64,000 nucleotides of DNA, taken from NCBI GenBank assembly GCA_963677485.1, contig OY781964.1, positions 3,296,001 to 3,360,000 on the forward strand, given 5' to 3'. Source of the stretch: Armatimonadota bacterium. Lineage in GTDB: Bacteria > Armatimonadota > HRBIN16. Below, in pieces: positions 7,832-23,623 of the stretch (its first letter is position 1; each line of letters begins with the position of its first letter). The translations under genes were made by a program, and so were the position numbers. The notes beneath the pieces are model-generated. The model ran no database searches. It saw only the letters and a list, made by a program, of their open reading frames with translations, and was not told where the DNA came from.

Positions 7832-7861
7832 GTGGTAATCTCCAGTTGGTAGTGATTGATG

Positions 7862-8063: not shown

Positions 8064-8069
8064 ATATAT

Positions 8070-8075
8070 AGCGTA
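8070..8075 (-). promoter_or_regulatory. -10 box (TACGCT) at the IS left end; other half of the circle-junction promoter
   Basis: Sits 17 nt from the right-end TTGACA only after circularisation. Confidence 0.7.
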
Positions 8076-8077
8076 CT

Positions 8078-8100
8078 AGGGGCGGTTCGAGAACCGCCCT
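8078..8100. repeat. GTAG REP palindrome interrupted by the IS110 (target site)
   Basis: AGGGGCGGTTCGAGAACCGCCCT. The missing GT of GTAG is on the other side of the element (6264-6265). Confidence 0.85.
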
Positions 8101-8433
8101 TCTTGCGTCGAGGGGTAGCCACGCCCCTGGCGGTTGGCATAGGGAATATCATCCACGGATGACGCAGATTACACAGATTAGGTCATGACCGGGGCGGTTT
8201 CTCAGAGCACTATCAAACGCCCTGCAGCCCGTCTCCGGCGCGGTCTGGCGGACAGCCCGTTGCCGATGCCCCTGGCGTCAGGATACCCGTTGACAACCAA
8301 CACTTAAAAGGGTGTAACTAGACAGAGCAGACAAGCATAGCCATATCTCACTTGCGACAAACTAACGACAGCAAAACATCGATCAAAGCTGATCTTTGCA
8401 CCACTTTCAGTAACTACCAGGAGATATATCATT

Positions 8434-9057: not shown

Positions 9058-9089
9058 GATCGTAGTCTCGAGGTTGCAATTACATAAAT

Positions 9090-9647: not shown

Positions 9648-9739
9648 GATGGACCAATTCCAACAGATGAAGGATTCTGCGCCCGCTTGCTGGAAACAAT
9701 CAACAGTAACCACAAAACTAGCAGGTGCAGTCCCACAGT

Positions 9740-12370
9740 ATGAGTGATCCATCGCCCCGAGACACGACAAGGCAACTTAACTCGCCTGACGCCCGTAAAA
9801 CCCTCTTTGCGCTGGGATCGCTGGCAGAGGGGGCTTTGTTGTGTGATCGGTTCGTGGTGGTGCGTACATTCCGCCCGCATGAAACCGCCAGGCCAGGCGT
9901 GTTTCTGTGTGACGACGCCCAGCTAGGCCGCGTGGTCGTGAAGATACACCCCCTCGATATCCCGCCCGATCAACACCTGTGGAGCATGTTGCAGCAGATC
10001 AGGCATCCCAGTGTGGTGCCCATTCTGCACACGCTGCATTGGCAGGGGCTGTGGGTCGAGGTGCAGCCGTACCTGTCAGGCGGCAGCCTGGTCGACCGCT
10101 ACACGCAGAGCCTCACCGGTCTGGTGCAGATGCCGCTGCCATACATCGAGAACGGGTTGGTGCCCCAGATCAGCAGTGCTCTGGCGGCCCTGCACGAGCG
10201 CGGGATTGTGCACCGCGATGTGAAGCCGGGCAACATATTGATTCAACCCGAAGAGGGCGGCGACCACTACCTTCTGGGCGACTATGACATCAGCTCGCAG
10301 TTGGCTATCGATGTCCACACCCGACTGACATCACGCGCGGCGGGCACCTGGATATACACCGCGCCTGAGGCCTTCCCGCGGTATCGCGATGACAACGGCG
10401 AGTTGGGTGCTAAGGTGTCGCGGGCGAGTGACTACTACAGTCTGGGGGTCAGTCTGCTCGAGCTGTGTGTGGGCACCACCCCGCTGCACACCAGCCAGTT
10501 GCCGGATATGTATGACTTCTACCTGACTGGGAACCGCCTGGACCCCCCGGCATCGATCCCTCAACGGGTGCGCGAGCTGATCTCGGGGCTGCTGATCCGT
10601 CAGCCGCATCTGCGCTGGGGTGAGCCCGAACTCAGCCGATGGCTGAGGCATGGCACCACCGCCGAGGACCTTACCCGTATCGAACAGGCGCAGCACCAGC
10701 CTGTCAGCGGCAAAGTGGTGGTGGAGTTTCGGTATTACGATCAGATTGTGGAGAGCCCTGAGCATCTGGGCCAATTGATGGCGGGCGAACTCGACAAAGC
10801 CGCGTTCTACCTCGAACAGCCCGAGGGGCTGTGGAGCTGGCTCGGGCAGATCGACGTCAACCGGGCGGTCACCGTGCGTAAGCGGTTTGAAGCGGCCCGG
10901 TCAGCCGGCGGGGCCGAAATGCTGCTGGTCTGCCTGTCGAACCCCTCCGCGAGGTGCCTGGTCAACGGGGATGTTCTCCAAAATGCGGCGCAGTGGCTGG
11001 AGAACCATAAACAGCAGGCGCGCGCGAGCTGGGTGACCGACATGGAGCTGAATCGCCTGCTCTACTGGCTGGAGTTCCACCGTGACGGCGACCCAGCACT
11101 GGCAGAGAGACTGAAGCCCATCAAGAAGACCCCCCACTCGGTGCGGTTGTTCGAGATGCAGTGGGCGCTCTTCCCCGAGCTGCCCATCACCATCCGGCCG
11201 GGCTACACCGCGCAAACACCCGCCGAGTTTGCCCTGATCGCCTACGGCAAGGAGCCGGACTGGGCCAGCGGACGTTGTGAGAGCTATCAGCGTGCGATGG
11301 TGGTGTGGCAGGACGGGCTGCTTGAGGCCTGGCTGCGCCAGCGTGGTCTGCTCCAGCTTTCGGAGCGCAGCGAACAGATACGTCAGCAAAGCTCGGATCA
11401 GCCGATCATCGCCTTCGAGGAGCTGCTGTTGCAGCTCAACCCGGAGCTGCCCAAACCAGTGATCAGGGTGGATCACGCCTCTACGGTGCAGATATCATTT
11501 GCCACCTCAACCCCTATTCTGGTGCCGTATCACACCAAAGGCATGGGCAACCCCATCATTCAGGTCAAGTGGCGGGCTCAGCCGGAGCTGGTGCCCGCAC
11601 CAAATCCGCTGGTGGGCCGTGAGGGGCATATCAGCGCAGTGTTTGGTGCCCAGATGGGGCGGGCAAGGGCCTCTGGGGAGATGGCCTTCAGCCTGAGCAG
11701 CCACAATGCCATCGTGAGCCAGGAGCTGCACACCGTGCCGTTCCGCGTGGTCAATCCCAACGGCGACCTCATCCGGCAGATGATCATCTCTATCCTGGTC
11801 GGGATTGCGATCTTTTGGTTTAGCCGCTGGGTGATGTCCGTCACCGGTCTTCATGCCCCTTTTACGTACGAGCAGCTTGAAGTGAACGGCACGTGGCGTC
11901 CATACCGGCGTGCTGCCACAAACACCATGCTATCGGCGCAACTGGGCATTGCGGTCTGGGCCTCTCTGATGTCCATCGGCTGGCTTTGCCATCAGAGCGC
12001 CCGGATGCGTGTTGAGCGGCTTGCTATCGGCGATCCGAGCATGAGGGACCTCATCAACCGCGAGGTGATGGGCAGCATCGTGGCCTTCATCGGGATATCG
12101 GGGTTTGTCGGGCCATGGATGGCTTATATCCTGGACATCCTGACCAGCTCCAGGCTGACATCATCCCATCCCGCGTTGATGTGGGCTGTGTGGGGCGGGG
12201 TGCTCGGTGGGGTCGCGGGGTTCTGGCTGATCAGTCCCGTTCAAGGGCGCACCTATTGGCGCGGATGGGTGCTTCTGGCTGTCATCATTGTGATGGTGGT
12301 GTTGGCGGCCGTCACGATGATAATGATGCCTGATGTAGCCGTTCCGGTAGCGGCCACTGGCCTCGATTGA
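9740..12370 (+). CDS. Hanks-type Ser/Thr protein kinase with C-terminal multi-TM domain (paralog 1)
   Basis: VVVK, HRDVKPGN, GDYDIS (at the DFG position), YTAPE and SDYYSLG; several TM helices at the C-terminus. Start estimated at ATG 9740. Confidence 0.9.
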   Translation: MSDPSPRDTTRQLNSPDARKTLFALGSLAEGALLCDRFVVVRTFRPHETARPGVFLCDDAQLGRVVVKIHPLDIPPDQHLWSMLQQIRHPSVVPILHTLHWQGLWVEVQPYLSGGSLVDRYTQSLTGLVQMPLPYIENGLVPQISSALAALHERGIVHRDVKPGNILIQPEEGGDHYLLGDYDISSQLAIDVHTRLTSRAAGTWIYTAPEAFPRYRDDNGELGAKVSRASDYYSLGVSLLELCVGTTPLHTSQLPDMYDFYLTGNRLDPPASIPQRVRELISGLLIRQPHLRWGEPELSRWLRHGTTAEDLTRIEQAQHQPVSGKVVVEFRYYDQIVESPEHLGQLMAGELDKAAFYLEQPEGLWSWLGQIDVNRAVTVRKRFEAARSAGGAEMLLVCLSNPSARCLVNGDVLQNAAQWLENHKQQARASWVTDMELNRLLYWLEFHRDGDPALAERLKPIKKTPHSVRLFEMQWALFPELPITIRPGYTAQTPAEFALIAYGKEPDWASGRCESYQRAMVVWQDGLLEAWLRQRGLLQLSERSEQIRQQSSDQPIIAFEELLLQLNPELPKPVIRVDHASTVQISFATSTPILVPYHTKGMGNPIIQVKWRAQPELVPAPNPLVGREGHISAVFGAQMGRARASGEMAFSLSSHNAIVSQELHTVPFRVVNPNGDLIRQMIISILVGIAIFWFSRWVMSVTGLHAPFTYEQLEVNGTWRPYRRAATNTMLSAQLGIAVWASLMSIGWLCHQSARMRVERLAIGDPSMRDLINREVMGSIVAFIGISGFVGPWMAYILDILTSSRLTSSHPALMWAVWGGVLGGVAGFWLISPVQGRTYWRGWVLLAVIIVMVVLAAVTMIMMPDVAVPVAATGLD

Positions 12371-12442
12371 TGGACTATCTTCGGGTGGTTTAGAAAATAC
12401 CAACCCTGTCTTGGGTAATTGTTAGTATTCAAGAACATCATA

Positions 12443-12958
12443 GCCTATGTCCGGGGCGGTCTTTCAGGAAGCAAGCGGTGGCGGAGGGAAAAAGACCGCG
12501 CCGGTCTGGCGGATAGCCTGATATCCCTCGTCACGAACAGGTCAAGACCGGCGCGGTTAGGAGAAAACCGCCCCGGACTTAGGCAATAGCGCCGGTCTTG
12601 CGGAAAACCAGCAGTGCCTATGTCCGGGGCGGTCTTGCAGGAAGCTAGCGGTGACGGAGGGTAAAAGACCGCGCCGGTCTGGCGGATAGCCTGATATCGC
12701 TTGTCACGAATAGATCAAGACCGGCGCGGTTAGGAGAAAACCGCCCCGGACATAGCAACCAAGACCGGCGCGGTTAGAGAAAACCGCACCGGACATAGCA
12801 AATGAAAACTAGCAATGCCTAAGTCCGGGGCGGTCTTACAGGAAGCTAGCGGTGACGGAGGGTAAAAGACCGCGCCGGTCTGGCGGATAGCCTGATAGCC
12901 CTTGTCACGACTAGATCAAGACCGGCGCGGTTAGTAGAAAACCGCCCCGGACATAGGC
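12443..12958. repeat. array of three ~140-bp palindromic units plus a partial unit (REPIN/BIME- or MITE-like)
   Basis: Units at 12443-12584, 12616-12755 and 12817-12958, bounded by GCCTA(T/A)GTCCGGGGCGGT...ACCGCCCCGGAC(A/T)TAG(G)C; half unit at ~12760-12799. Confidence 0.85.
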
Positions 12959-13090
12959 AATCAAGACTGGTCTAGAAACATTCTTGCGACGCGGTCATGC
13001 GTGAGGCGATATACTTGGGTAGCATCGGCCTCCATTGGTGTATAGTGTTGTATGAAAAGGGAAATATGTCTGACTGATGGAGTGGTTATA

Positions 13091-15775
13091 TTGGCTGATC
13101 GCCCGACGGAAAAGATAGGCAACGACAACCCGACACAGCTTGTGGGCGGTGCCGTCGCGGCAGGCGGTGACGCCACCCGTGCGGTGCGCTCTTCCGACCA
13201 ACCCCGGGCCCAGGCATCACCCCGCTTCGCGCTGGGAGCACTGGCTGAGGGCACGATGCTGCTCGGTAGCTACAAGGTGGTGCAGACCTTCCGAGCGCAC
13301 GAAACCGGCCGCCCGGGCGTCTACCTGTGTGACACCGCCACCGGTCGGGTTGTGGTGAAGCTCTACCCCCTCGACTACCCGCCTGTGGCTGATGTTTGGG
13401 CCCAGACCGGGCAGTTGGTCCATCCGCATGTCGTACCCACCATCCGGCAGGTCATGCAGAACGGCCTTTTCTGCGATGTGATGCCCTATTATGAGAGCGG
13501 CTCGCTGGTGGAGGCGTATCAACAAGAAGGCTCGAACCTGCTGCAAGTGCCGATGGAGATCATCACAGACAGATTCGCTCCGCAGATACTCGATGCCCTG
13601 GCGTATGTCCATTCAATGGGGCTTGTCCACCGAGACATCAAACCGAGCAACATCCTGGTGGACGGCGTAGATGATCAGCCGGAGTTTCTTTTGGGTGACT
13701 TTGACATCAGCTCACAGCTTAACACCCAGCTTGATCAGCGCATCACCATGCGCGCCGCGGGCACTTGGACCTACACCGCCCCAGAGGCGTTCCCCAGATA
13801 CCAGGACGAAGAGGGCGTGGTCGGAGCCAAGGTAACGCGGGCATCTGACTACTACAGCCTGGGTGTGACGATGCTGGAGATGACCTGCGGTACCACTCCG
13901 CTGCACACCTGCTCACTACCCGATGTGTTTGACTTCTACCTCAGCGGTCAGAGGATTTCTGTGCCGTCGGAGCTGCCCGAGCGGTTGCGCACGTTGATCC
14001 AGGGCCTGCTCATCCGTCATCCGCAGCAGCGCTGGGGTGAAGCCGAAGTTGATCGTTGGCTTCAAAGCAATAACACCGCCGATGACATGCAGCGCATACA
14101 GGATTCTCAGGTCAGACCACTGAGTGCTAAGACAGAACCGCCATTTCAGTATCGTGATGAGGTTATGCAGAACCCTGAACAACTCGGTCAACTCATCGCT
14201 GACGACCTGGATGCAGCCACCACATTGCTGCGTCGTGCCGAAGGGTTGTGGGTCTGGCTGGGCAGGATCGATGTGAACCGGGCGGTGGCGATACGGAAGC
14301 GCGTGGAGGCGGCATCCGGCGGTGGAGCCGAAGTGATACTGGCCTGCCTGCTGAACCCGCACGTGGTATGCCATGTCGGCTCCCATGAGCTCAACACGGC
14401 CCAGCAGTGGTTTGACATGCTGGACAGTGCCCGCAGCGCATCAGTAAGCAATGCTGAGCTCTACCGGTTCCTCTACTGGCTGTATTACCATGCTGACGGT
14501 GATCGTGACTTGGCGAAGCGGATCATGCCGATCTTGAAGACGCTGGATGGCATCCGGTTATACGAGATTCGCTGGGCAATGTATCCCGGCACCCCGTTGA
14601 CAGTGTGTCAGGGCTATGATGCCCGCACTCCAGAGCAGTTGGCTTCCATCGCATACGGGCAGGAGGCGGACTGGAGCAGCGGACGATGCGACCAGTATGA
14701 ACGGGCGATGTCGCTCTGGCTGGATGGCATCGTGGAGGCCTGGCTGAGGCAGTTGGGCCATCAGCAGCTGGCGGTCCTCAGCAAAGCCAAACGCGATGCG
14801 AGTGCCGGCCAACCGGTGGCCGGTTTTGAAGAGGTTTTGCGTCTGATGAAACCCGGGCTTCGCAGGCCTGAAGTCAGTTTCCAGCTCCCAAGCTGCGTGA
14901 AGGTAGACTTCAAAATCCCAACCCGCGTGCGGGTTCCATATACCACCACGGGCCCAGGAAAACCTGTGATGCATGTCCAGTGGCAGCCACACAGTGGTTT
15001 AGATGCCGCCGCAGAACAATATGTGGAACGTGTTGGTCATGTGGAGGCGAAGCTCATTGCACAGGGTGGACAGCTTGAAGAGAAGGGTCGCGTTGGTTTT
15101 AGTGTCGAAAGCCCGAATGCAAAGCTCATCCCTGGCATGCACTGGCTGCCGTATGAGGTGGTCAACCCGAACGGGAGTATAGCCATTCAGATGGTCGCAT
15201 CGACTATTCTGGGCGGGTTGATATTTGGCGTGAGCCGGTCCATCATGGCGGCGATGGGTTACCACGGATTCTTTAGTATCGCTGGTGAACACGCCACCAG
15301 GACTCAGGATGGGCTCATGGGGCAGGCAGGGATGTTTATATTTGTGTCGCTGCTGGGAGCAGGGGTGACGGCTCATTGCGTGGTTCGTGACCGTGTGGAG
15401 AAGCTGCGGATTCAGATGGCTGACTTTGAAATCGTGGATTCCTCTGCGTATGCATATGATCCCGAATCGAGGGTGGAGGCCATGGCCGGTCAGTTGATGG
15501 TGCAACACCCATGGCTATCAGCCGGGATTCTGATCATCGTGGGCGGTCCGGTCTCAATTAGTGTGCTGGACTATGTCACGGGCTCGCTGCTCATCCCGTC
15601 AACCCCGCAAATCATGTGGACCTTTTGGGGACTAATATATGGTGCGGTGGCCGGTTTTTGGCTGGTGAGCCCTCTGCGGGGGCGTACCTACCTGCGCCTC
15701 CCTGTGCTGGCTGGCGTGGTTCTGCTGATGGCGGTGCTCGGTCTGGTGATCTACGGTTTGTGCCCACCACCGTAG
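13091..15775 (+). CDS. Hanks-type Ser/Thr protein kinase with C-terminal multi-TM domain (paralog 2)
   Basis: HRDIKPSN, GDFDIS and YTAPE; C-terminal TM helices. Probable TTG start at 13091 (GGAG upstream, aligns with MADRPT of paralog 3); ATG 13052 is the alternative. Confidence 0.9.
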   Translation: MADRPTEKIGNDNPTQLVGGAVAAGGDATRAVRSSDQPRAQASPRFALGALAEGTMLLGSYKVVQTFRAHETGRPGVYLCDTATGRVVVKLYPLDYPPVADVWAQTGQLVHPHVVPTIRQVMQNGLFCDVMPYYESGSLVEAYQQEGSNLLQVPMEIITDRFAPQILDALAYVHSMGLVHRDIKPSNILVDGVDDQPEFLLGDFDISSQLNTQLDQRITMRAAGTWTYTAPEAFPRYQDEEGVVGAKVTRASDYYSLGVTMLEMTCGTTPLHTCSLPDVFDFYLSGQRISVPSELPERLRTLIQGLLIRHPQQRWGEAEVDRWLQSNNTADDMQRIQDSQVRPLSAKTEPPFQYRDEVMQNPEQLGQLIADDLDAATTLLRRAEGLWVWLGRIDVNRAVAIRKRVEAASGGGAEVILACLLNPHVVCHVGSHELNTAQQWFDMLDSARSASVSNAELYRFLYWLYYHADGDRDLAKRIMPILKTLDGIRLYEIRWAMYPGTPLTVCQGYDARTPEQLASIAYGQEADWSSGRCDQYERAMSLWLDGIVEAWLRQLGHQQLAVLSKAKRDASAGQPVAGFEEVLRLMKPGLRRPEVSFQLPSCVKVDFKIPTRVRVPYTTTGPGKPVMHVQWQPHSGLDAAAEQYVERVGHVEAKLIAQGGQLEEKGRVGFSVESPNAKLIPGMHWLPYEVVNPNGSIAIQMVASTILGGLIFGVSRSIMAAMGYHGFFSIAGEHATRTQDGLMGQAGMFIFVSLLGAGVTAHCVVRDRVEKLRIQMADFEIVDSSAYAYDPESRVEAMAGQLMVQHPWLSAGILIIVGGPVSISVLDYVTGSLLIPSTPQIMWTFWGLIYGAVAGFWLVSPLRGRTYLRLPVLAGVVLLMAVLGLVIYGLCPPP

Positions 15776-15783
15776 GGGCAGGT

Positions 15784-15864
15784 CCCCTGGGAACGCCCCC
15801 TGGGAACGCCCCCTGGGAACGCCCCCTGGGAACGCCCCCTGGGAACGCCAATCTCCTGATTGGC
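15784..15864 (+). repeat. 5 x 13-bp tandem repeat (CCCCTGGGAACGC) running into a REP-like hairpin GCCAATCTCCTGATTGGC
   Basis: TGGGAACG at 15788, 15801, 15814, 15827 and 15840. An inverted single copy of the REP lies at ~32158-32183. Confidence 0.85.
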
Positions 15865-16028
15865 ACATTGTCCTACTCGTCCTACTCATCCTACATGTCC
15901 GGAACGGGAAATAAAACCACGAATGAACACGAATGAACGCGAATGCCCGGATTGTCTGAACCACGGATGACACGGATGGGGAGGGAAATGCCGTTTCGTG
16001 GGCGGGGCGTTGCGGAAGGTGGTTTTTT

Positions 16029-16091
16029 GGGCGGGGCGACCCCGCCCCTACGATTTTATGCGGCCACCGTAGGGGCGGGGTCTTCCCGCCC
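16029..16091. repeat. GTAG REP pair
   Basis: GGGCGGGGCGACCCCGCCCCTAC (16029-16051) and GTAGGGGCGGGGTCTTCCCGCCC (16069-16091). Confidence 0.75.
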
Positions 16092-16271
16092 TGGGCCTGC
16101 ACGCCCAGGGTCTCCCCGCTCGGGGTTCCGGCCCACACACGCCCCGCCCAAACCCATCGCCCACCTTGCGATCTGGCCCATCCGATAACGATGACCATCG
16201 GGCAGATGCGTAAGGCTCCAATTGTCAGTGCGTTGTGGTATAAATAACATGGTCTCTGAAGTTGGAGGCCG

Positions 16272-18614
16272 ATGGAGTTGCTCCCAGCAATGGCAGATCG
16301 TCCGACACAGAAAATAGGTAACGATAACCCGACACGGCTTGTGGGAGACGTTGTTGCGGCACCCGGCGATTCCACCCGTGCGGTGCGCTCAACCGATAAA
16401 CCCCGAGCCCAAGCCTCAACCCGTTTCGCACTGGGAGCCTTGGCTGAAGGCACCATGCTCTTCGGCGATTATAAAGTGGTGCAGACCTTCCGCGCACATG
16501 AAACAGGCCGCCCCGGCGTGTATCTGTGTGACACCGCCTCGGAGCGGGTCGTGGTGAAGGTCTACCCGTTGGATTTCCCGCCGTCTGCGGATGTCTGGGC
16601 CCAGATTGGACAGTTAAACCATCCGCATGTGGTGCGAATCGTTCGCCAGGTGCTGCAGGACGGCCTCTATTGCGATGTGCTGCAGTATTGTGAGTGCGGC
16701 TCGCTGGTTGAGGTGTATCTAAACAACGAAACAAAAATGCTGAAGGTTCCGATGGGCTCCATGCTAGATCGGTTCGCTCCGCAAATGCTGGATGCACTCA
16801 AGTATGTTCACTCCATGGGGCTTGTGCATCGCGACATCAAACCAAGCAATATACTAATAGAAGAGAACGCGGAAAATCCCGAATTTCTTCTTGGTGACTT
16901 CGATATCAGCTCCAAGCTGAGTTTGCAGCTCGATCAGCGCATCACCATGCGGGCCGCGGGCACTTGGACCTACACCGCGCCAGAGGCGTTCCCAAGATAC
17001 CAGGACGAAGAGGGCGTGGTGGGGGCGAAGGTGACGCGTGCCTCCGACTACTACAGCCTGGGCGTGACGATGCTGGAAATGGCCTGCGGAACCACTCCGC
17101 TGCACACATGCAAACTACCGGATATGTTCGACTTCTATCTGAGCGGACAGAAGATCGACGTGCCGTTGAGCATACCCGAGAGGCTTCGACTGCTTATCCA
17201 GGGGCTTTTGATACGCAACTCCAGCCAGCGCTGGGGTGAGGCGCAGGTCGGCCGGTGGCTGACGGGCACGAACACCGATGTCGATGTGCAGCTCATCACC
17301 GATGACCGCGAACACAGCCCCTTCAGCAAGGCGGCGGGCGATGCCTACTCGTTTGGCGCGCAGCACGCAAGGAGTTTCAGCCAGTTGGCGGAGATGTTTG
17401 CCGCGGACCCTGAGATGGCTGCGGACCACCTGCGCATGAGCGATGCGCTTTACCAGTGGGTGGGGCAGCGTGATACCAGCCTGGCCATATTGTTGCGCAA
17501 GGATGTTCAGAAATACATCAACCATCCTGACCTGGCAATGATCGGCGCCTGTCGGCTGGACCCCAACGCGCCGATGATCTTCTTCAACGGATTGCCTGTG
17601 CGGACGGCCGAACAGTGGCTTTCCGAGGCGGAGCGGATATACCCACAGCGTAAAGAACCGGACTGCTGGCTGGATGAAAAAGAGGCCGAGCGTTTGCTGC
17701 TATGGCTGCAGAGGCGTGGAGCTGCCGACCGTGATATCGCCAGACGGCTGGAGGGTTTGGAAGTCCGTAACCCGGAGTGCCGGTTGGCTGAGGTCAGCTT
17801 TGTAATTGACCCGCGCCGCGGCATCAGCCTGGCGGAAGGTGTGACGGTGTCGCACCCTGTCGATTTTTCGACCATGGCCTACGGTGATGAGCAGAGCTGG
17901 ACTAACGGGATACCGGCGTGCTATGAGCAGGCATACCGCGTGTGGAGCACAGGGATTCTGGAGGCATGGTTCCGGCAGCGCGGACTGACGGCTCTGGCCG
18001 TGCGCTGCGCTGATCTGAAGGAGACAATGCGTGACACTCCTTACGGGGCCTTCGAGACCATACTTCGGGTGATCAATCCGAAGTTGCCCACGGTGAAGGT
18101 CAGTTTTGAGCGCATTCCGCCGGTGACACTGGTGTATGGTAAGCCGACGCGAGTGGCGTTAAACTACCACACTATCGGCCCCGGATGTCCGCTGATGCGG
18201 TTTGTCGGCATGGGTGATAAAGATGAGGCGTATCTGGAAACCCCAGTGATAGGCTCGCGTGAAGGCCAGGTTTGGGTGAAGCTGACCGGGATGGTAACAC
18301 TTAAGGGTGTACCGCGTCTGATGGATATTAAAAGCACGGGTCCTTTTTCGAAACTGGTGGGTGGAGAGCCGACGCTTACCTATGAAGTGGTTACCAACTC
18401 GCGTATGTTTGGTGTCTATGTGGGCTGGAGTGCTGCGTATGGACTGCTAGGTCTTTGGCTGCCCAGGCAGTTGATGCAATACACTGGTATTAACGAGTTA
18501 GATTTTGAACTTCGCCGCATTGCTGCGGCAATAGGTATGGTTGTTCTGGCAGTGATGATATTTCTCGGCAGAATGATGTATCTATCAGCCCTAAAATCGG
18601 CGGAGGAAGAGTAG
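16272..18614 (+). CDS. Hanks-type Ser/Thr protein kinase (paralog 3; last TM block encoded separately)
   Basis: HRDIKPSN, GDFDIS and YTAPE; kinase domain very similar to paralog 2; two TM helices at the C-terminus. Confidence 0.9.
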   Translation: MELLPAMADRPTQKIGNDNPTRLVGDVVAAPGDSTRAVRSTDKPRAQASTRFALGALAEGTMLFGDYKVVQTFRAHETGRPGVYLCDTASERVVVKVYPLDFPPSADVWAQIGQLNHPHVVRIVRQVLQDGLYCDVLQYCECGSLVEVYLNNETKMLKVPMGSMLDRFAPQMLDALKYVHSMGLVHRDIKPSNILIEENAENPEFLLGDFDISSKLSLQLDQRITMRAAGTWTYTAPEAFPRYQDEEGVVGAKVTRASDYYSLGVTMLEMACGTTPLHTCKLPDMFDFYLSGQKIDVPLSIPERLRLLIQGLLIRNSSQRWGEAQVGRWLTGTNTDVDVQLITDDREHSPFSKAAGDAYSFGAQHARSFSQLAEMFAADPEMAADHLRMSDALYQWVGQRDTSLAILLRKDVQKYINHPDLAMIGACRLDPNAPMIFFNGLPVRTAEQWLSEAERIYPQRKEPDCWLDEKEAERLLLWLQRRGAADRDIARRLEGLEVRNPECRLAEVSFVIDPRRGISLAEGVTVSHPVDFSTMAYGDEQSWTNGIPACYEQAYRVWSTGILEAWFRQRGLTALAVRCADLKETMRDTPYGAFETILRVINPKLPTVKVSFERIPPVTLVYGKPTRVALNYHTIGPGCPLMRFVGMGDKDEAYLETPVIGSREGQVWVKLTGMVTLKGVPRLMDIKSTGPFSKLVGGEPTLTYEVVTNSRMFGVYVGWSAAYGLLGLWLPRQLMQYTGINELDFELRRIAAAIGMVVLAVMIFLGRMMYLSALKSAEEE

Positions 18615-18919
18615 TGTACAGATACCGACGCCCGACGCCTGGCGAAATGTTGGTGCAAGCGGCGATCATAGGTTTGTTTTTACTATTCATGGCAGGGCCG
18701 TATGCGATAGCTCTACTGGACTTCGTGTTCAGCACGTATTTGGTTCCTGAGATGCCTCAGATTATGTGGGGCTTTTGGGGTGTTGTGATCGGAGCAACCA
18801 TAGGTCTGCAGATCGTGGCACCACGGATGGGGCTCGAGAGAGCGGCTCAGATATCGCGATGGTCAGTACCGGCAGTGATGCTGGTTCTTGCCCTAATCGG
18901 ACAGTTAATCAAAAGGTAG
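18614..18919 (+). CDS. small multi-TM protein homologous to the C-terminal TM block of kinases 1 and 2
   Basis: GPYAIALLDFV...PQIMWGFWGVVIGA aligns with kinase 2 GPVSISVLDYV...PQIMWTFWGLIYGA. TAGTG stop/start overlap with GGAGG upstream. Confidence 0.75.
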   Translation: MYRYRRPTPGEMLVQAAIIGLFLLFMAGPYAIALLDFVFSTYLVPEMPQIMWGFWGVVIGATIGLQIVAPRMGLERAAQISRWSVPAVMLVLALIGQLIKR

Positions 18920-18929
18920 GAGAAATCAA

Positions 18930-20249
18930 ATGAGTGGAGCAGTCGATATGGTACTGCTGGTAGGTGCCTTGCTTGAAGGGGTCAGCCTGGCAGTCAATAC
19001 TATGCAAGACGCGTACAAAACGGCCCAGCGGCAGATGGAAACCGCGCAAGAGACAGTGAAGTTTCAGCGCGATATGGAGCTGCAGCAGGCGTGTGAGGAT
19101 CAGATCAAAAGTGGGCAGGTTGTGGCCGCCTCAGCGCAGATGCTGACGGACGAACCTGGCACGCTGTTCCTTTTCCAGGCACTGGGTGAGCTGAAACAGC
19201 AGCTTGGGCAGAGCCAGGGGGCTCGCACTGAGTCTCTTCGTGCAGCGATCGATGAGCGAATTCGCCAGGTGGCCAATCATCCCGACCAGATGGTGGCGCA
19301 CACCAATGCGATATTTGAGTTCCACCAGCAGATCGCGGAGCTCAGCCAGCAGCAGCAATCCGAAACGGTCAGCGCATTGGCACACACCGCCATCCCGTTT
19401 GCTCAGCAGGTGCAATATCTGCGTTCGATGCTGGACACCGCGCTGATCAGGCAGTTTCGGCCTAAAGAGCTGGAAGAGATGAAGCTGCAGATCGCCCGTC
19501 TGGAGATCGTGGCGGAGCAAAGCCCCGAGATCGCAGCTCAGGGTTATGAGACGCTGACGGCTCAGTTGCGGCGGTTAATGTTGGATGCCGCTGAGCATGA
19601 GCAGCATCGGCGTGCCGGTATCGCCCGAATCCAGCAACTGCTGGCAGTGGCCCGACCGGCTTTAGCAGCGGTGATGACCGCCCAGGAACTGGTGCCTCAT
19701 CTCTCCACCCGCAGCACGGCGTTGAAGCAAGCGATCAAGAAATTCGTCACCAACTGGAACGGCGGCTCGCTTGAGGAGTTAGAGGCACTGTCGCAAAACA
19801 GCGAGCTGTTATACCATCAGGCTCAGCAGTATATCCAGAAGCAGGCGGCTGCCGAACTGGTGTATAACAATGTCACCGCCTCCTTCCAGGAGCTGGGCTA
19901 TGAGGTCATGACGCTCAACCGGTATCAAGGCCGATGGCGCGGGCGGGTGGCCTTGACGGACACCGCCGGCATCGAGTTTATCTCAGACCCCGAGGGCGGG
20001 GTGTTGTCAGACACGGTCACCACAGATATCAACAACGTGGCTTTCAATCCAGAGCTGGAGCAGAAGGTCTGTACGACCGTTGATGAGGTACTGGAAAAGG
20101 CCAGGGCGAAACTGGCAGGCACCGGAGTTGAGCTGCGCGAGCGCAGCCGTGTGCATGGACGCGTACCGAGGCTGGTGCGCAGCCTGCAGAGAGATACCGA
20201 GGAACAAACCACCACTGCCGAGGCCCCAAAGACGCTGGAACAGCAGTAG
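18930..20249 (+). CDS. long alpha-helical/coiled-coil hypothetical protein
   Basis: Q/E/A/L-rich helical body with a small alpha/beta C-terminal domain (FQELGYEV...IEFISDPEGGV...KVC); AGGAG RBS. Confidence 0.75.
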   Translation: MSGAVDMVLLVGALLEGVSLAVNTMQDAYKTAQRQMETAQETVKFQRDMELQQACEDQIKSGQVVAASAQMLTDEPGTLFLFQALGELKQQLGQSQGARTESLRAAIDERIRQVANHPDQMVAHTNAIFEFHQQIAELSQQQQSETVSALAHTAIPFAQQVQYLRSMLDTALIRQFRPKELEEMKLQIARLEIVAEQSPEIAAQGYETLTAQLRRLMLDAAEHEQHRRAGIARIQQLLAVARPALAAVMTAQELVPHLSTRSTALKQAIKKFVTNWNGGSLEELEALSQNSELLYHQAQQYIQKQAAAELVYNNVTASFQELGYEVMTLNRYQGRWRGRVALTDTAGIEFISDPEGGVLSDTVTTDINNVAFNPELEQKVCTTVDEVLEKARAKLAGTGVELRERSRVHGRVPRLVRSLQRDTEEQTTTAEAPKTLEQQ

Positions 20250-20384
20250 AAACTAATACCGCATCTACCTGGTCTCACGCGAAGACGCGAAGGTAACAGC
20301 CAGTTCAGGCGTCCGCTTTAGCTGGTTGATGGAACCCGTCGCCGATGCCTAGGTAGAACCTAACAGCCAAATAAGGAGCTTCGC

Positions 20385-22331
20385 ATGGAGTTAGCCTCGC
20401 AGCCCAGATGGATACAGGAGCTGCTGCGCGTCAGCAGCTACAAGACGCTTATCATCCTGCATGGTGCGATCCGTGACACGGTACTGTATCCCGTCCAGAG
20501 CCTGGAGGGCACTCAGCAGTATACATTTGGGCCGCTTCGCAGTGCGCTGTTTGAGCTGTTGGGCCGTAATCCGCTGTTTGGAGAGTATCCGCTGGTCGGC
20601 GCGTACAGCGGGTTAGATGGTTTGCTGTTTGCACCCGGCAGCGGTACCGGGCAGACACCGGAGCAGCTTTTCGCCGATGCGGTCAAACAGGCAGAGCAGG
20701 CTCAGAAGACGAACAACAGCCCGATCAAACCGCAGCAGACACAAGCCGCGTCCGATGCCGCCATCCAGCAGCTCCGCATGTGCACCCGCAACACCATCAC
20801 CCCCTGTGCATTTATCGTGGAGAACGCCACCCAGATGGTGGGAACGCCCAACCATCTGCCGATGGATGAGCGAAACCCCTTCCTCAGGATGCTGATCGGC
20901 AGCACCGAAAGCCGTCCGGTGGGTGTTGACCGCGACGGAAAGCGGCGGATCATGCAGAATTTGCTGATCATCTGCGCCAGCAGGCCGACGGACCTGCCTC
21001 CCTGGGTCTACCTCGATAACCCCTTCGCGGCCACCGTGGAAGTGGAACGCCCGAACTCGTTGGAACGCAGATACTTCTTTAGCAGCTACCTGAGCCCTGT
21101 GCCGACGGAGCAGCACCTCGACCAGTTGGTGGACCTGACGGACGAGATGAGCTTCCGCGACCTGTTCGGCATTCAAAAGATCGCAACCGGTATGAATGAG
21201 GAATCCGCCAACCCCAAGGCGTTGGTGGACCGCTTCAAATATGGCGAACGGCAGAGCGAATGGGACAGCCTGGAGCCTGCCAGACTGCTGGATGCGGAAA
21301 AGACGCTCAGCCAGCGTGTGCTGGGGCAGCCTGCGGCTGTCGCGGCGGTCGCCGATGTGCTGCGGCGTGCCCGGCTGGGCCTCTCAGGCGTGCAGCACAG
21401 CAGCCAGACCAAACCCAGAGGAGTCTTGTTCTTCGCGGGACCAACCGGCGTGGGTAAAACCGAGCTGGCGAAAGCGGTGGCCGAGTTGGTATTCAGCTCT
21501 GAAGAGGCTTGCATCCGGTTTGATATGAGCGAATACAGTGCCAGCCATAGTGATCAGCGCCTGCTGGGAGCTCCCCCCGGTTACGTCGGTTATGAAGAGG
21601 GTGGACAGCTCACGAACCAGATCAGGGCGAACCCCTTCAGTGTGATTCTGTTTGACGAAATTGAGAAGGCGCACCCGAATATCCTGGATAAGTTTTTGCA
21701 GATTCTGGAAGATGGGCGCATGACCGACGGCAGAGGCCAGACGGTCTATTTCAGCGAGAGCATCATCATCTTCACCAGTAATGCCGGCATCTATAAGGTC
21801 AACTCGCAGACAGGCCGGCCTGAGCAGGACCCTGTGACGGGTCTACCGTTACTAAATATCGACCCCGACACCAATCCAAAATACGAGCAGGTTCGTGACC
21901 AGGTGATTAAGGGTGTGAGTGACTATTTCAAGCACTACCTGGGACGCCCTGAGCTGCTGAACCGCATCGGCCAAAATGTAGTTGTGTTCGACTTCATCCG
22001 CCCAGATGCGATGCGAAGCATTTTGGAGAACAAGGTGCTGAAGGGTGTCAGCAAGCAGCTCAATCAGCGTTGGGGCATTAAGCTGGAGCTAAGCCCCGAG
22101 GCTCTGGAGCAGCTTTCGGTATGGGTGCTGGCCGATCCTGGCTCCGGTGGGCGCGGCATCGGTAACCTGGTAGAGGTGGCTCTGGTGAACCCCCTTAGCC
22201 GGTTGCTGTTCGCCAAACTGGCCGAAGACCCGCAAGGCTTTCAGAATCGCACACTACGTGTGATCAGCTTCACGGCACCGGAATCCAACGCAGAACACCG
22301 CTACGAGCTGTCTGTCGGGTGGACTGAATGA
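20385..22331 (+). CDS. AAA+ ATPase with a ClpA/B D2-type (AAA_2) domain and a degenerate N-terminal ATPase-like domain
   Basis: RVLGQ, GPTGVGKTELAK, RFDMSEY, LLGAPPGYVGY, ILFDEIEKAH, DGRMTD and RPELLNRI. The N-terminal half lacks an intact Walker A. Confidence 0.9.
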   Translation: MELASQPRWIQELLRVSSYKTLIILHGAIRDTVLYPVQSLEGTQQYTFGPLRSALFELLGRNPLFGEYPLVGAYSGLDGLLFAPGSGTGQTPEQLFADAVKQAEQAQKTNNSPIKPQQTQAASDAAIQQLRMCTRNTITPCAFIVENATQMVGTPNHLPMDERNPFLRMLIGSTESRPVGVDRDGKRRIMQNLLIICASRPTDLPPWVYLDNPFAATVEVERPNSLERRYFFSSYLSPVPTEQHLDQLVDLTDEMSFRDLFGIQKIATGMNEESANPKALVDRFKYGERQSEWDSLEPARLLDAEKTLSQRVLGQPAAVAAVADVLRRARLGLSGVQHSSQTKPRGVLFFAGPTGVGKTELAKAVAELVFSSEEACIRFDMSEYSASHSDQRLLGAPPGYVGYEEGGQLTNQIRANPFSVILFDEIEKAHPNILDKFLQILEDGRMTDGRGQTVYFSESIIIFTSNAGIYKVNSQTGRPEQDPVTGLPLLNIDPDTNPKYEQVRDQVIKGVSDYFKHYLGRPELLNRIGQNVVVFDFIRPDAMRSILENKVLKGVSKQLNQRWGIKLELSPEALEQLSVWVLADPGSGGRGIGNLVEVALVNPLSRLLFAKLAEDPQGFQNRTLRVISFTAPESNAEHRYELSVGWTE

Positions 22332-22969
22332 GGCGGACCCATATAGATATCGACGGCGCGGCAGCCCACGTTCAGGGGCTTGGGCCAGGTGAACGGCTGG
22401 TGATCTGGCTGCGCGGCTGCTCACGGCGGTGCGAGGGTTGTATCGCGCCGGAGCTGTGGGATTCGGGTGAACCGACCCCGATTGCGGAAGTGGCTGCCTA
22501 TTTGTTGTCGGAGCTTCAAGGATGCGGCAAGCTGACCGTGTCTGGTGGCGAGCCGATGGATCAGCCGGAAGCTTTGCTGGAGCTCATCAGGCAGTTGCGC
22601 ACAGCCATGCCGGAGCTGGAGGTGCTGGTGTATACCGGATATGTTTATGAGGAGCTGCAGACGAAGTCAACGGCCCACACACAGCTTTTGGGTCAGATCG
22701 ATATGTTAGTGGATGGTGCATTTGAGGTCGACACGCCCAACACGCTGCAGTGGCGCGGTTCCGACAACCAGCGGGTTCTGCTTCTCTCCGAGCGGGCGCA
22801 GATATACCGCGACCAAACCGAGCTGCCCTGGCCGGAGCAAAGGCCCATCCAAGTGCAGATGTGCAGTGCCACGGAGTATCGGGTGATCGGCATTCCGAAG
22901 CGCGGCGGGATCGAACAGTATAGAGAGTTGATGCGTCAACGAGGAATAGAAGTGGGGCCATCCATATGA
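22328..22969 (+). CDS. radical SAM 4Fe-4S protein, NrdG/activase-like
   Basis: GPGERLVIWLRGC, CxxxCxxC (CSRRCEGC), SGGEP, YTGY, DMLVDG and WRGSDNQR; ATGA overlap with the ATPase. Confidence 0.9.
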   Translation: MRRTHIDIDGAAAHVQGLGPGERLVIWLRGCSRRCEGCIAPELWDSGEPTPIAEVAAYLLSELQGCGKLTVSGGEPMDQPEALLELIRQLRTAMPELEVLVYTGYVYEELQTKSTAHTQLLGQIDMLVDGAFEVDTPNTLQWRGSDNQRVLLLSERAQIYRDQTELPWPEQRPIQVQMCSATEYRVIGIPKRGGIEQYRELMRQRGIEVGPSI

Positions 22970-23478
22970 CTGCAGTGAGAATATGTCCAGATTGTGGGCA
23001 ACAGAACGCGGCGCATCTGGTTTTTTGTACGAAGTGCCAGATGGATATCAGCACGGTGCCGCCGGAGGTTCCCGAGGTGACAGAGCAGACCATCACGACA
23101 CCTGCACCGCCGCAGAAGACATCTGATGCCACGTCAGTGGTCAAACCATGCGGTCAGAAGAGCGATGGAGCGGTGTGCAGCCTGGAGCTGGTTTCTGACT
23201 CCAATGTGGTGTTCAACGTGCAGGATGGCCAGGTGGTGGGCCGCGGTGATAAGGCGGATGTGCGTATTACCGGGGTACCGGATATCGATGCGATTTCACG
23301 GCTTCATGCGAAGTTCTTTTGTAAGAACGGTCAGTGGTACGTGCAGCATATGGGAAGCACGAATTTTATCAAAGTGGACGGCCAAACCTATACCGATCAC
23401 GACTCAGAAGTGGCCGTGTATGAGGGTAGTATTGTGGTGTTGAGCCTGACCCCTTTCACCTTCCGCGTGGTAGATTAA
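22966..23478 (+). CDS. zinc-ribbon + FHA domain protein
   Basis: CPDCG...FCTKC ribbon; FHA motifs VGR, ISRLHA and GSTN. Confidence 0.88.
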   Translation: MTAVRICPDCGQQNAAHLVFCTKCQMDISTVPPEVPEVTEQTITTPAPPQKTSDATSVVKPCGQKSDGAVCSLELVSDSNVVFNVQDGQVVGRGDKADVRITGVPDIDAISRLHAKFFCKNGQWYVQHMGSTNFIKVDGQTYTDHDSEVAVYEGSIVVLSLTPFTFRVVD

Positions 23479-23569: not shown

Positions 23570-23623
23570 ATGCCATATCGGTGCCTTACCACCACCATCC
23601 TCATCACGTATCGAGGTGACACC

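Follow-up and report, generated by a model that had tools for sequence, protein, structure and literature searches.

Does a run of eight co-oriented genes in an Armatimonadota bacterium (HRBIN16 lineage; GCA_963677485.1) constitute a functional unit, and if so, of what kind? The genes lie in a 64 000 nt stretch of contig OY781964.1 (positions 3,296,001 to 3,360,000; hereafter the window, to which all coordinates refer). The original prediction, made from the sequence alone, was that three membrane Ser/Thr kinases, a coiled-coil protein, a ClpB-D2 AAA+ ATPase, an NrdG-like radical SAM enzyme and a Zn-ribbon-FHA protein form an undescribed phospho-triggered conflict or membrane-stress machine. 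We found that the observation itself holds, and that the window carries one copy of a widespread but unnamed gene cassette; the proposed interpretation is only partly supported.

Gene content of the cluster

Eight ORFs were identified on the + strand, at 9725-12370, 13052-15775, 16272-18614, 18614-18919, 18930-20249, 20385-22331, 22328-22969 and 22966-23478. The last three are coupled by two ATGA overlaps (22328-22331 and 22966-22969), as had been predicted, and the stop of the third kinase gene shares one base with the GTG start of the small ORF that follows it. It had been claimed that the cluster contains no glycyl-radical enzyme, ClpP or phosphatase, and indeed none of the 15 proteins scanned in and around the cluster is one of these. 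However, two corrections are required. First, the phosphatase gap is special to this genus, since relatives have a PP2C between the FHA and kinase genes. Second, the genome is not free of glycyl-radical enzymes: it has 9 Gly_radical matches, the nearest about 8 kb beyond the end of the window, although no NrdD was found.

The three large ORFs encode paralogous Hanks kinases (Pfam Pkinase), all with HRD and APE motifs and with GD[FY]D in place of DFG. Kinase K1 (9725-12370, 881 aa; E = 2.5e-24) has a short N-tail with one TxxΦ motif, a kinase domain (HRD at 10211-10219), a cytoplasmic region of about 340 aa with no known family and a C-terminal bundle of about 4 membrane helices (hydropathy segments at 680-706, 781-803, 818-836 and 842-878). 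Kinase K2 (13052-15775, 907 aa; E = 1.3e-29) has the same architecture and four TxxΦ motifs in its N-tail (residues 1-58). Kinase K3 (16272-18614, 780 aa; E = 8.1e-31) has three such motifs and a divergent middle region, and ends after the first membrane helix or helices (segment 745-775). K2 and K3 are 74% identical in the kinase domain but 25-35% in the middle region, whereas K1 and K2 are 52% identical in the first half of the middle region; a sister genome has four kinases. The small membrane protein (18614-18919, 101 aa), which has no Pfam family, is homologous to the last membrane helices of K1 and K2. In most relatives this is a separate gene after the kinase (a small ORF hit by the kinase C-terminal model follows the kinase in surveyed loci L066-L083), so that K1 and K2 look like fusions rather than K3 being broken.

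The coiled-coil protein (18930-20249, 439 aa) has no Pfam, NCBIfam or PADLOC family. It has a conserved MSG start, an N-terminal hydrophobic anchor (about residues 2-25), a helical region (8-321) and a C-terminal α/β domain (about 306-410; model pLDDT 88.9) with a predicted KA1-like fold. The top VIA-align rows for this domain are KA1-type domains, but the Z scores are middling (8.2-6.2) and Foldseek found nothing significant. In an alignment of 30 diverse C-terminal domains, the only invariant columns are one Gly and one Cys, corresponding to G323 (19896-19898) and C381 (20070-20072). The protein is also homologous to a group of proteins found in a vWA variant of the cassette (hhalign 76%, E = 2.3e-5).

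The ATPase (20385-22331, 648 aa) is two-tiered. Residues 1-300 form a dead, family-specific AAA-like tier without a P-loop lysine (HGAIRDT at the Walker A place) and with the signature PxW[LVF]Y[LR][DNG]NP[FY]; a profile of this N-domain gave only faint matches to Vps4/NSF-type AAA domains (E = 0.035-0.6). Residues from about 300 to 648 form a ClpB-D2-type tier (Pfam AAA_2, E = 1.6e-49, plus ClpB_D2-small), predicted to be active, with Walker A (GPTGVGKT, 21438-21461), the pore loop GYVGY (21579-21593) and Walker B (ILFDEIEKA, 21645-21671). In NCBIfam, ClpB ranked first and only its D2 part was matched (residues 298-611 against model positions 553-833).

The radical SAM enzyme (22328-22969, 213 aa) matches Pfam Fer4_12 (E = 4.1e-31) and Radical_SAM, and carries CxxxCxxC (C31, C35 and C38; 22418-22441), SGGEP (22541-22555), RGSDNQ (22754-22771) and an extra C-terminal tail of about 60 aa; a family alignment showed invariant motifs. 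NrdG (TIGR02491) was its best NCBIfam family, though below the cut-off (105.4 bits against 126.1). The Zn-ribbon-FHA protein (22966-23478, 170 aa; Pfam FHA, E = 3.1e-9, and weak zinc-ribbon hits) has CPDC...CTKC at 22984-23037, a linker and an FHA domain retaining the GR, SRLH and STN motifs, which contain the residues used for phosphothreonine binding. The zinc ribbon plus FHA combination recurs in relatives, a strict CxxC...CxxC pattern being present in 44 of 64 proteins of 330 aa or less hit by the iterated model.

Distribution and co-occurrence of the genes

Absence of co-occurrence in other genomes had been set in advance as grounds for rejection, and this refutation fails clearly: the genes do co-occur elsewhere and form a conserved unit. 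The ATPase N-domain occurs in 34 of 401 sampled Armatimonadota genomes and 20 of 207 genera, and in 1158 clusters of a 1.84-billion-protein representative library at E ≤ 1e-3 (606 at E ≤ 1e-10). A scan of genome contigs from a species-representative collection gave 67 confirmed loci out of 80 pattern matches. Among the 37 loci with at least 6 kb on both sides of the ATPase, iterated HMMs identified, within 8 kb, the radical SAM enzyme in 34, a kinase in 35, the protein with the coiled-coil C-terminal domain in 36 and FHA in 36; all four were present in 34, whereas PP2C was present in 18 and vWA in 4. These loci span Armatimonadota, Bacillota, Actinomycetota and other phyla, and gene order differs between clades while content is kept.

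Three kinases, the missing phosphatase and the membrane anchoring are features of this lineage and not of the system. Most relatives have one kinase plus a PP2C (subject to the count of 18 of 37 above), and the Bacillota and Gardnerella versions have no predicted membrane segments. The kinases, which had been proposed to act as sensors, have no extracytoplasmic domain: all soluble parts lie before the C-terminal membrane bundle, so that any sensing is cytoplasmic or within the membrane.

In a quick ATPase tree, a cultured Gardnerella vaginalis row sits inside a Lachnospiraceae/Oscillospiraceae clade (SH-aLRT 97) and Bacillota MAG rows sit inside the Armatimonadota-type clade (99-100), indicating cross-phylum transfer. 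However, many loci come from MAGs, and some cross-phylum placements (Bacteroidaceae rows nearly identical to Clostridia rows) may be due to binning errors.

A narrower trio (coiled-coil protein, ATPase and radical SAM enzyme) without kinases was found on proteobacterial plasmids, of Acinetobacter and Moellerella, behind a 1274-1318-aa Mokosh-like helicase (PADLOC MkoA, 9e-96 and 7e-102) and a PIN nuclease (PIN_4). On the Acinetobacter plasmid the next, viperin-like genes match pVip (1e-11) and VakA (5e-19), and on the Moellerella conjugative plasmid the neighbours are ArdA, a nuclease matching PDC-S26 (1.6e-35), an integrase and an IS5 element. An Aristaeella plasmid carries the full kinase version beside a DUF4011 helicase. 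In contrast, the flanks in the window are not a defence island, since they hold a dTDP-sugar epimerase, an IS110 element, an acyltransferase and a GH2 glycosidase, and no match was found in 50 697 phage records.

As originally suggested, no characterised system of this composition was found in PADLOC 2.0, NCBIfam, Pfam or the literature. PADLOC finds nothing for the coiled-coil, radical SAM or FHA proteins, and gives only generic kinase and ATPase-core matches.

Evidence for a proposed phosphothreonine switch

The proposed relay from kinase to FHA protein gains support from the kinase N-tails. In 54 kinases, Thr makes up 8.6% of the N-tails against 4.5% of the rest of the protein, and 44% of the tail Thr have I/L/V/M/F at +3 against 25% elsewhere, although hydrophobic residues are rarer in the tails (Fisher P about 1e-9; note that relatives are not independent). 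Thirty of the 54 tails have at least two of these TxxΦ motifs, the kind that FHA domains bind.

What might the cassette do?

The cluster is a lineage-specific, membrane-tethered version of the cassette. Our preferred reading, which we consider about as likely as not, is that it works as an inducible conflict (anti-phage or anti-mobile-element) system. In this view there are two modules. The first would be a phosphothreonine switch, with Hanks kinases as writers (three diverged paralogues here), the TxxΦ threonines of their disordered N-tails as docking sites, the Zn-ribbon-FHA protein as reader and, in most relatives, a PP2C as eraser, lost from the cluster in this genus. The second is the conserved core trio: the coiled-coil protein with its KA1-like domain, the two-tier AAA+ with its threading tier, and the small radical SAM enzyme, translationally coupled to the ATPase. 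A cytoplasmic or membrane cue would activate a kinase, which would autophosphorylate its tail; the FHA protein would dock and bring or license the ATPase and radical SAM pair; the ATPase would engage and remodel the coiled-coil protein; the radical SAM enzyme would abstract a hydrogen at or near the invariant Gly or Cys of the KA1-like domain; and the modified or released coiled-coil protein, or the kinases themselves, would halt the cell or the invader. Whereas the gene content, motifs, co-occurrence, horizontal spread and neighbours rest on direct analysis, every functional step in this scheme is inferred, including the remodelling of the coiled-coil protein by the AAA+ and its modification by the radical SAM enzyme, the first of which the original prediction inferred and the second of which it raised as a possibility. 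A conflict role is favoured by the plasmid and defence-gene neighbours, the cross-phylum transfer and the diversification of the kinases. On the other hand, the kinase version has no classical effector domain (nuclease, NADase, pore-former or protease), and a stable glycyl radical is hard to reconcile with aerobic hosts such as Acinetobacter, Rhizobium and Bacillaceae.

A possible but less likely alternative is a housekeeping stress or proteostasis module without a role in conflicts, in which the kinase, FHA and PP2C proteins regulate an unfoldase managing a structural coiled-coil protein, for example in membrane or envelope maintenance or in development. Kinase/FHA/PP2C sets regulate cell-envelope processes in Actinobacteria, the flanks in the window include envelope and sugar genes (rmlC, the acyltransferase and the GH2), the locus position is kept within the genus (loci L043 and L044), the Gardnerella cassette lies beside pyrB and, as noted above, the kinase version lacks a recognisable effector domain. 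However, the distribution is patchy (3 of 17 genomes in the window's own family, in addition to the phylum-wide figures above), there are cross-phylum transfers, the cassette is carried on conjugative and other plasmids next to MkoA-like helicase, PIN, pVip/VakA-like genes and ArdA, and the non-catalytic regions of the kinases are mosaic and fast-diverging.

It is unlikely, though compatible with a defence role, that the cassette serves constitutive protein maturation, the radical SAM enzyme, helped by the AAA+, converting the coiled-coil protein into an active effector or structural product, as in radical-SAM-matured effectors such as HXS or RiPP-like systems, with phosphorylation only tuning expression or assembly. 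A protein-acting radical SAM family (NrdG/PflA-like) does travel constantly with one protein that has an invariant Gly and Cys, there is a weak NCBIfam hit to HxsC (5.4e-6), a radical-SAM-matured antiphage effector is reported (PMC13128918), and Kaur et al. 2020 (section 21 of PMC7159879) infer a radical SAM enzyme that modifies a standalone peptide effector next to a dead-plus-active AAA+. But the HxsC score is far below its cut-off (25.5 against 267.9), no SPASM or RiPP-recognition domain was found with Pfam, the coiled-coil protein is large and mostly helical with no signal peptide or leader-like repeats, and the tight linkage to a writer, reader and eraser set suggests an acute switch.

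It is very unlikely that the radical SAM gene encodes an ordinary activase for the metabolic glycyl-radical enzymes of the genome and only happens to lie here. The genome does have only one canonical PflA-type activase for its 9 Gly_radical matches, and the enzyme's best family is NrdG, so that a metabolic side-role in this organism is not excluded; however, the gene is kept within 8 kb of the ATPase in 34 of 37 well-flanked loci across phyla, its start overlaps the ATPase stop, its product scores below the curated cut-offs of NrdG, PflA and the PFLE_PFLC subfamily, no NrdD was found in the genome, and the nearest glycyl-radical enzyme gene is about 49 kb away. A type VI secretion-style pathway (PpkA/Fha/ClpV) controlling a secretion or contractile apparatus, suggested by the joint occurrence of a kinase, an FHA protein and a Clp-type AAA+ and by the presence of TssH among the NCBIfam hits of the ATPase, can be all but dismissed, since TssH is hit far below its cut-off (213.5 bits against 884.95) and through the D2 tier only, no VipB/TssC was found in the genome and none of the 15 scanned proteins is a T6SS part.

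The cassette thus joins a putative threonine-phosphorylation switch to an unfoldase-type ATPase, a small radical SAM enzyme and a coiled-coil protein, and its spread and neighbours suggest a new kind of bacterial defence system.

Gene content of the cluster

Between positions 9725 and 23478 eight co-oriented ORFs were found. Pfam assigned a protein kinase domain to each of the three large ORFs (kinases K1, K2 and K3), AAA_2 plus ClpB_D2-small to the 648-aa protein, Fer4_12 plus Radical_SAM to the 213-aa protein, and FHA plus weak zinc-ribbon matches to the 170-aa protein, whereas no family was found for the 101-aa and 439-aa ORFs. The catalytic motifs are intact: HRD and APE in the kinases, Walker A, Walker B and a GYVGY pore loop in the ATPase, CxxxCxxC in the radical SAM enzyme, and GR, SRxH and N in the FHA domain. 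The two ATGA overlaps noted in the original prediction are present, and none of the 15 proteins scanned in and around the cluster is a glycyl-radical enzyme, ClpP or a phosphatase. The arrangement originally described from the sequence is therefore confirmed.

The flanks were also inspected. Upstream, an IS110-family transposase (6539–7867, − strand) and two small ORFs with N-terminal hydrophobic segments (8434–9057 and 9090–9647, both + strand) lie between rmlC (5562–6113) and K1, in a stretch of low GC content (0.488 at 8001–10000, against 0.58–0.62 in the cluster). The two small ORFs gave no BLAST match in the two loci from the same genus (L043 and L044), so this looks like a recent insertion. 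Downstream are an Acyl_transf_3 membrane acyltransferase (23570–24643), a 309-aa protein with no family (24733–25662) and a 1191-aa GH2 glycosidase (25734–29309); the acyltransferase is also downstream of the cassette in both same-genus genomes. When the flanking acyltransferase and rmlC were sought in five genomes of the same family to test by synteny whether the locus is an island, 0 of 5 and 1 of 5 matches were obtained, which was uninformative in this respect.

Architecture of the individual proteins

The first 300 residues of the ATPase form a family-specific domain with a G-x-x-x-D-T stretch where a P-loop would be, without the P-loop Lys, and with a signature PxW[LVF]Y[LR][DNG]NP[FY]. 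A search of PDB sequences with the profile of this N-domain gave only faint AAA-lid matches, to Vps4 and NSF-type AAA domains (E 0.035–0.6). We read it as a dead AAA-like tier in front of the active ClpB-D2-type tier. The cluster names of ten relatives of the ATPase were only generic ('Clp ATP-binding subunit', 'AAA family ATPase'). Two longer relatives (P0088 and P0134) were examined for fusions that might hint at function, but their C-terminal extensions match no family and contain no Fer4_12. Likewise, an apparent 150-aa N-terminal extension of the radical SAM ORF in one relative locus (L058) overlaps the FHA ORF and is an artefact of ORF calling.

The kinases have no predicted extracytoplasmic part: the kinase domain and a region of about 340 aa with no family are followed by a C-terminal bundle of membrane helices. 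The 101-aa ORF is homologous to the last helices of K1 and K2 and, since in most relatives such a small membrane protein is encoded by a separate gene after the kinase, K1 and K2 look like fusions rather than K3 being broken. The paralogues are mosaic, K2 and K3 being 74% identical in the kinase domain but only 25–35% in the middle region, whereas K1 and K2 share 52% identity in the first half of that region. A search of the ESM Atlas with the middle region gave only a sub-threshold lead to DUF5717 (0.77), which was not used. The kinase array changes copy number within the genus, since the sister genome (locus L044, 7650–18274) carries four tandem kinase paralogues instead of three.

The 439-aa protein has an N-terminal hydrophobic anchor, a long helical region and a C-terminal α/β domain (model pLDDT 77). 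Its first residues are conserved, with an MS[GS] start in 45 of 59 family members. A profile search of PDB sequences with its alignment gave only coiled-coil noise, the ESM Atlas returned only unnamed clusters (0.90, likewise not used), and structural alignment of the full model with VIA-align was dominated by generic helical bundles. Folded alone with 30 diverse relatives, the C-terminal domain reaches pLDDT 88.9 and pTM 0.82. Its best structural matches are KA1 (kinase-associated-1)-type domains, which make up about 10 of the top 14 rows: METTL16 VCR (Z 8.2, rmsd 2.6, 84 residues aligned), Chk1 KA1 (Z 8.2, rmsd 2.9, 78 aligned), AMPK alpha (Z 7.9), MARK1 (Z 7.3), SAD-B (Z 7.1) and MARK3 (Z 7.0). 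However, these values are middling, Z under 8 may reflect only a common arrangement, there is no sequence similarity (5–10% identity), and Foldseek against the PDB found nothing at E ≤ 0.001 for either the full model or the domain. We therefore call the predicted fold KA1-like, not KA1. KA1 domains occur in MARK/Par-1, Chk1, SAD and AMPK alpha kinases and in METTL16 and TUT1; here, too, the KA1-like domain occurs in a kinase-linked system, but it sits on a separate coiled-coil protein rather than on the kinase, it has an invariant Gly and Cys pair, and it is also found in kinase-free plasmid versions. Across the 30 domains only two columns are invariant, a Gly (G323 of the window protein) and a Cys (C381), and the same two residues can be read in the homologue on a Moellerella plasmid. 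A glycyl-radical-like stretch near the end of the window protein (RVHGRV) was rejected as a conserved radical site because only its Arg is conserved among 12 relatives.

Co-occurrence of the genes in other genomes

With the whole ATPase as query, full-length matches among 41 related genomes occur only in the genus of the window, and all other hits are housekeeping Clp D2 domains. With the N-domain alone, matches were found in 34 of 401 sampled genomes of the Armatimonadota and in 20 of 207 genera. In 20 regions retrieved around such matches the usual order is coiled-coil protein, ATPase, radical SAM enzyme, FHA protein, PP2C, kinase and a small membrane protein, although rearranged versions exist. 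In one Armatimonadota MAG (L078, 13226–16393) the PP2C and the kinase are fused into one 1055-aa ORF, which supports their working together. A profile of the N-domain found 1158 clusters in a representative library of 1.84 billion proteins (606 at E ≤ 1e-10), nearly all full-length ones being 600–700 aa. A scan of one genome per species returned 67 confirmed loci, from Armatimonadota and Abditibacteriota, many Bacillota (including Niallia, Brevibacillus and Ureibacillus isolates), Gardnerella vaginalis and Coriobacteriaceae, an alphaproteobacterial MAG, Syntrophobacteraceae, Riflebacteria and some Bacteroidota MAGs.

HMMs built from the Armatimonadota proteins and iterated on these loci were used to count partners within 8 kb of the ATPase in the 37 loci having at least 6 kb on each side of it. 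The radical SAM enzyme was found in 34 loci, a kinase in 35, a protein with the C-terminal domain of the coiled-coil protein in 36 and FHA in 36; all four were present together in 34, while PP2C was present in 18 and vWA in 4. The relatives are not independent of one another, and the iterated FHA model also picks up Zn-ribbon-only proteins: in Lachnospiraceae-type loci (L095–L099, about 11.7–13.4 kb in locus coordinates, just after the ATPase) tandem arrays of two or three small proteins that begin with the same Zn-ribbon (MKQC[RL]ECGT...) but lack an FHA domain were picked up only because the model includes the Zn-ribbon. DUF6273 proteins lie next to or inside the cassette in two unrelated Bacillota loci (Niallia, L088, 17596–18567, and an Aristaeella plasmid, L143, 10660–12174) and may be an accessory component.

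The ATPase tree (a quick IQ-TREE of 64 rows) splits by architecture. A membrane-tethered branch holds the window, other Armatimonadota and nested Bacillota MAGs, with an alphaproteobacterial MAG at its base. In a soluble Bacillota-type branch the cultured Gardnerella vaginalis strain is nested within Lachnospiraceae and Oscillospiraceae rows (SH-aLRT 97). A distant branch adds a vWA protein, and its coiled-coil protein ('f15') shares only the C-terminal domain with that of the window (hhalign 76%, E 2.3e-5). Predicted membrane segments on the kinase and the coiled-coil protein are largely confined to the first branch. Some ATPase rows from MAGs labelled Bacteroidaceae or Bacteroides (L109 and L112; L108) are nearly identical to, or nested among, Clostridia rows, which reflects either very recent transfer or a binning error.

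A kinase-free version on plasmids

The N-domain matches 19 plasmid records and no phage record in the collections searched. On an Acinetobacter plasmid and on Moellerella conjugative plasmids the order is a 1274–1318-aa SF1 helicase (PADLOC MkoA 9e-96 and 7e-102), a 720–800-aa PIN_4 protein, a coiled-coil protein with the same C-terminal domain, the ATPase and the radical SAM enzyme. The neighbours on the first plasmid match pVip (1e-11) and its kinase VakA (5e-19), while on the second they are ArdA, a PDC-S26-like nuclease, an integrase and an IS5 element. The Aristaeella plasmid has the full kinase version next to a DUF4011 helicase (cf. PMC10250203, section 17) and a DUF6273 protein. So the coiled-coil protein, the ATPase and the radical SAM enzyme form the conserved core, and the phosphorylation set is one of at least two front ends.

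Threonine motifs in the kinase tails

The N-terminal tails of the kinases differ in sequence between clades but share a pattern of repeated short Thr motifs (for example ..TRRV.., ..ETIPP.., ..ATVVMP.. and ..PVTQF..). In 54 kinases Thr makes up 8.6% of the tails against 4.5% of the rest of the protein, and 44% of Thr in the tails have I/L/V/M/F at +3 against 25% elsewhere, although hydrophobic residues are rarer in the tails (20% against 29%). Fisher's test gives P of about 1e-9, which overstates significance because the kinases are related. K2 has four such motifs, K3 three and K1 one. FHA domains bind pTxx(I/L/V/D)-type peptides through conserved Arg, Ser, His and Asn residues, and the FHA protein of the cassette scores above the Pfam cut-off (37.6 bits against 20.7) and keeps these residues (GR, SRLH and STN). 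That autophosphorylated tails serve as FHA docking sites is therefore a well-founded inference, though no more than an inference.

The radical SAM enzyme

NCBIfam ranks NrdG, the activase of class III ribonucleotide reductase, first for the 213-aa protein, but below the curated cut-off (TIGR02491, 105.4 bits against 126.1). The scores are lower still for PflA-type glycyl-radical enzyme activases (44.6 against 231.75 bits for TIGR02493 and 38.9 against 174.35 for TIGR02494), so that the enzyme falls below the cut-offs of NrdG, PflA and the PFLE_PFLC subfamily. It also scores far below the cut-off for HxsC, the radical SAM maturase of the HXS system (25.5 bits against 267.9). A profile search of PDB sequences gave only PflA, at E 0.0088. 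The CxxxCxxC, GGEP and RGSxNQ motifs, which typify NrdG, are invariant in an alignment of 20 family sequences, which also shows an extra C-terminal tail of about 60 aa. The small size suits a protein substrate and, by homology, the enzyme should act on a protein. NrdD (PF13597) gave no match in this 97%-complete single-contig genome, whereas the control genomes matched. The genome does contain nine PFL-like glycyl-radical enzyme genes (for example at 1667071, 5191823 and 3368176 of the contig, the last about 8 kb past the end of the window and the nearest to the cluster), but only one canonical PflA-type activase (5192198) plus a fragment containing a TGA (5196478), and none of these lies in the cluster. 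Rather than to a glycyl-radical enzyme, this radical SAM gene is linked to the ATPase and coiled-coil genes. A complex of the enzyme with the C-terminal domain of the coiled-coil protein, predicted from the two family alignments with a 4Fe-4S cluster and SAM included, scored 0.01 against a mark of 0.32, which counts neither for nor against binding.

Comparison with known systems

PADLOC 2.0 gave only generic kinase matches (mad6, PD-T4-6 and the N-terminal part of MkoA) and ATPase-core matches (PDC-M37B and DolB, over about 120–180 residues); it gave nothing for the coiled-coil or FHA proteins and, for the radical SAM enzyme, only a pVip match at E 0.0057. For each of the nearest known systems a defining feature was looked for and not found.

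In the T6SS threonine phosphorylation pathway a Hanks kinase (PpkA), a PP2C phosphatase (PppA), an FHA reader (Fha1) and a Clp-family AAA+ (ClpV/TssH) are encoded together, and phosphothreonine is read by FHA to license an ATPase-dependent machine. The window likewise encodes Hanks kinases and an FHA protein with the ATPase, PP2C being present in relatives only. However, the TssH score is 213.5 bits against a cut-off of 884.95, the ATPase lacks the ClpV N-domain and an active D1, VipB (PF05943) gave no match in the genome, and the cassette adds a radical SAM enzyme and a coiled-coil KA1-like protein as partners. Nor does the ATPase qualify as a ClpB/Hsp104 disaggregase, which has two active AAA tiers with an N-domain and an M-domain, since it scores 268 bits against a cut-off of 1232 (TIGR03346) and only D2 is matched (residues 298–611); of ClpB, ClpV and ClpA, NCBIfam matches only the D2 half.

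The TerY-P triad (the vWA protein TerY, PP2C and a Ser/Thr kinase) is a validated antiphage system and shares the theme of a phosphorylation switch in a conflict setting. A distant branch of the cassette (loci L104, L117, L121, L124 and L129) carries vWA, PP2C and a kinase next to the ATPase, but the vWA protein of L124 matched no PADLOC model, the window has neither vWA nor PP2C among the 15 scanned proteins, and TerY-P is not known to have an AAA+, radical SAM or coiled-coil partner. Mokosh consists of an MkoA SF1 helicase with a PLD nuclease (MkoB), or of the fused MkoC. The plasmid version of the core trio follows an MkoA-like helicase, but has a PIN_4 protein instead of MkoB; the kinases of the window match only the N-terminal kinase-like part of one MkoA model (positions 7–332 of 1112; 1e-20 to 1.7e-27), the window has no helicase and no PLD, and Mokosh is not known to have an AAA+ and radical SAM pair. 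For Dodola, DolB matched over the ATPase core only (residues 287–466, 9.2e-20), and there was no DolA hit among the eight proteins.

The FtsH ternary systems of Kaur, Burroughs, Iyer and Aravind (2020; PMC7159879) share a two-tier AAA+ with an inactive N-terminal and an active C-terminal domain, a standalone radical SAM enzyme inferred to modify a separately encoded protein or peptide, vWA in some members, and a predicted conflict role. Those systems are, however, built around MoxR and vWA with an FtsH-type AAA+, whereas here the active tier is of AAA_2/ClpB-D2 type (1.6e-49, with PF00004 at only 1.1e-6) and no FtsH model is among the NCBIfam hits at E ≤ 0.01. No MoxR or vWA is among the window proteins, and no MoxR is among the conserved partners seen. 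The kinase, FHA and PP2C switch and the KA1-like coiled-coil protein are not part of that description, although its supplements might list overlapping loci. Literature searches found no description of this composition in open-access papers and preprints, figures and supplements excepted. An overlap with loci listed only in the supplements of earlier comparative-genomics work cannot be excluded.

Interpretation

The original prediction is supported in its central claim, that of a conserved and undescribed system, while its mechanistic sketch is reasonable but unproven and some of its particulars (three sensors, no phosphatase and a membrane machine) are peculiarities of this lineage. The gene content, the motifs and the co-occurrence are read directly from the sequences; phosphorylation-dependent docking, threading by the ATPase, the action of the radical SAM enzyme on a protein and a role in conflicts are inferred. 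We are highly confident that the cassette is a real functional unit, but consider it only about as likely as not that it is an inducible conflict system working roughly as proposed.

A bolder possibility, which we consider unlikely though not excluded, is that the NrdG-family enzyme installs a protein radical (glycyl or thiyl), or a radical-derived modification, on the invariant Gly/Cys pair of the KA1-like domain, that the two-tier AAA+ presents or extracts that domain, and that the kinase–FHA–PP2C switch decides when this happens. This would be glycyl-radical-type chemistry recruited from anaerobic metabolism into a signalling or immune machine and, in aerobic hosts, oxygen-dependent backbone cleavage at the radical site could serve as an irreversible trigger.

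If the conflict reading is right, this is a large family with no name, whose ATPase alone defines over a thousand 50%-identity protein clusters, which spans many phyla and which occurs on conjugative plasmids. It joins three things not known to work together: a eukaryote-like phosphothreonine switch, an Hsp100-type threading motor and a protein-directed radical SAM enzyme. Even if the system is not defensive, the linkage of an unfoldase with a radical SAM enzyme, kept in 34 of 37 loci, poses a clear and testable biochemical question, for which the invariant Gly and Cys are direct targets for mutation. In the conflict reading the cassette would add a new effector or activation logic to bacterial immunity, would give NrdG-like activases a substrate outside metabolism, and would place a KA1-like domain, known from eukaryotic kinase regulation, in a bacterial kinase-linked system.
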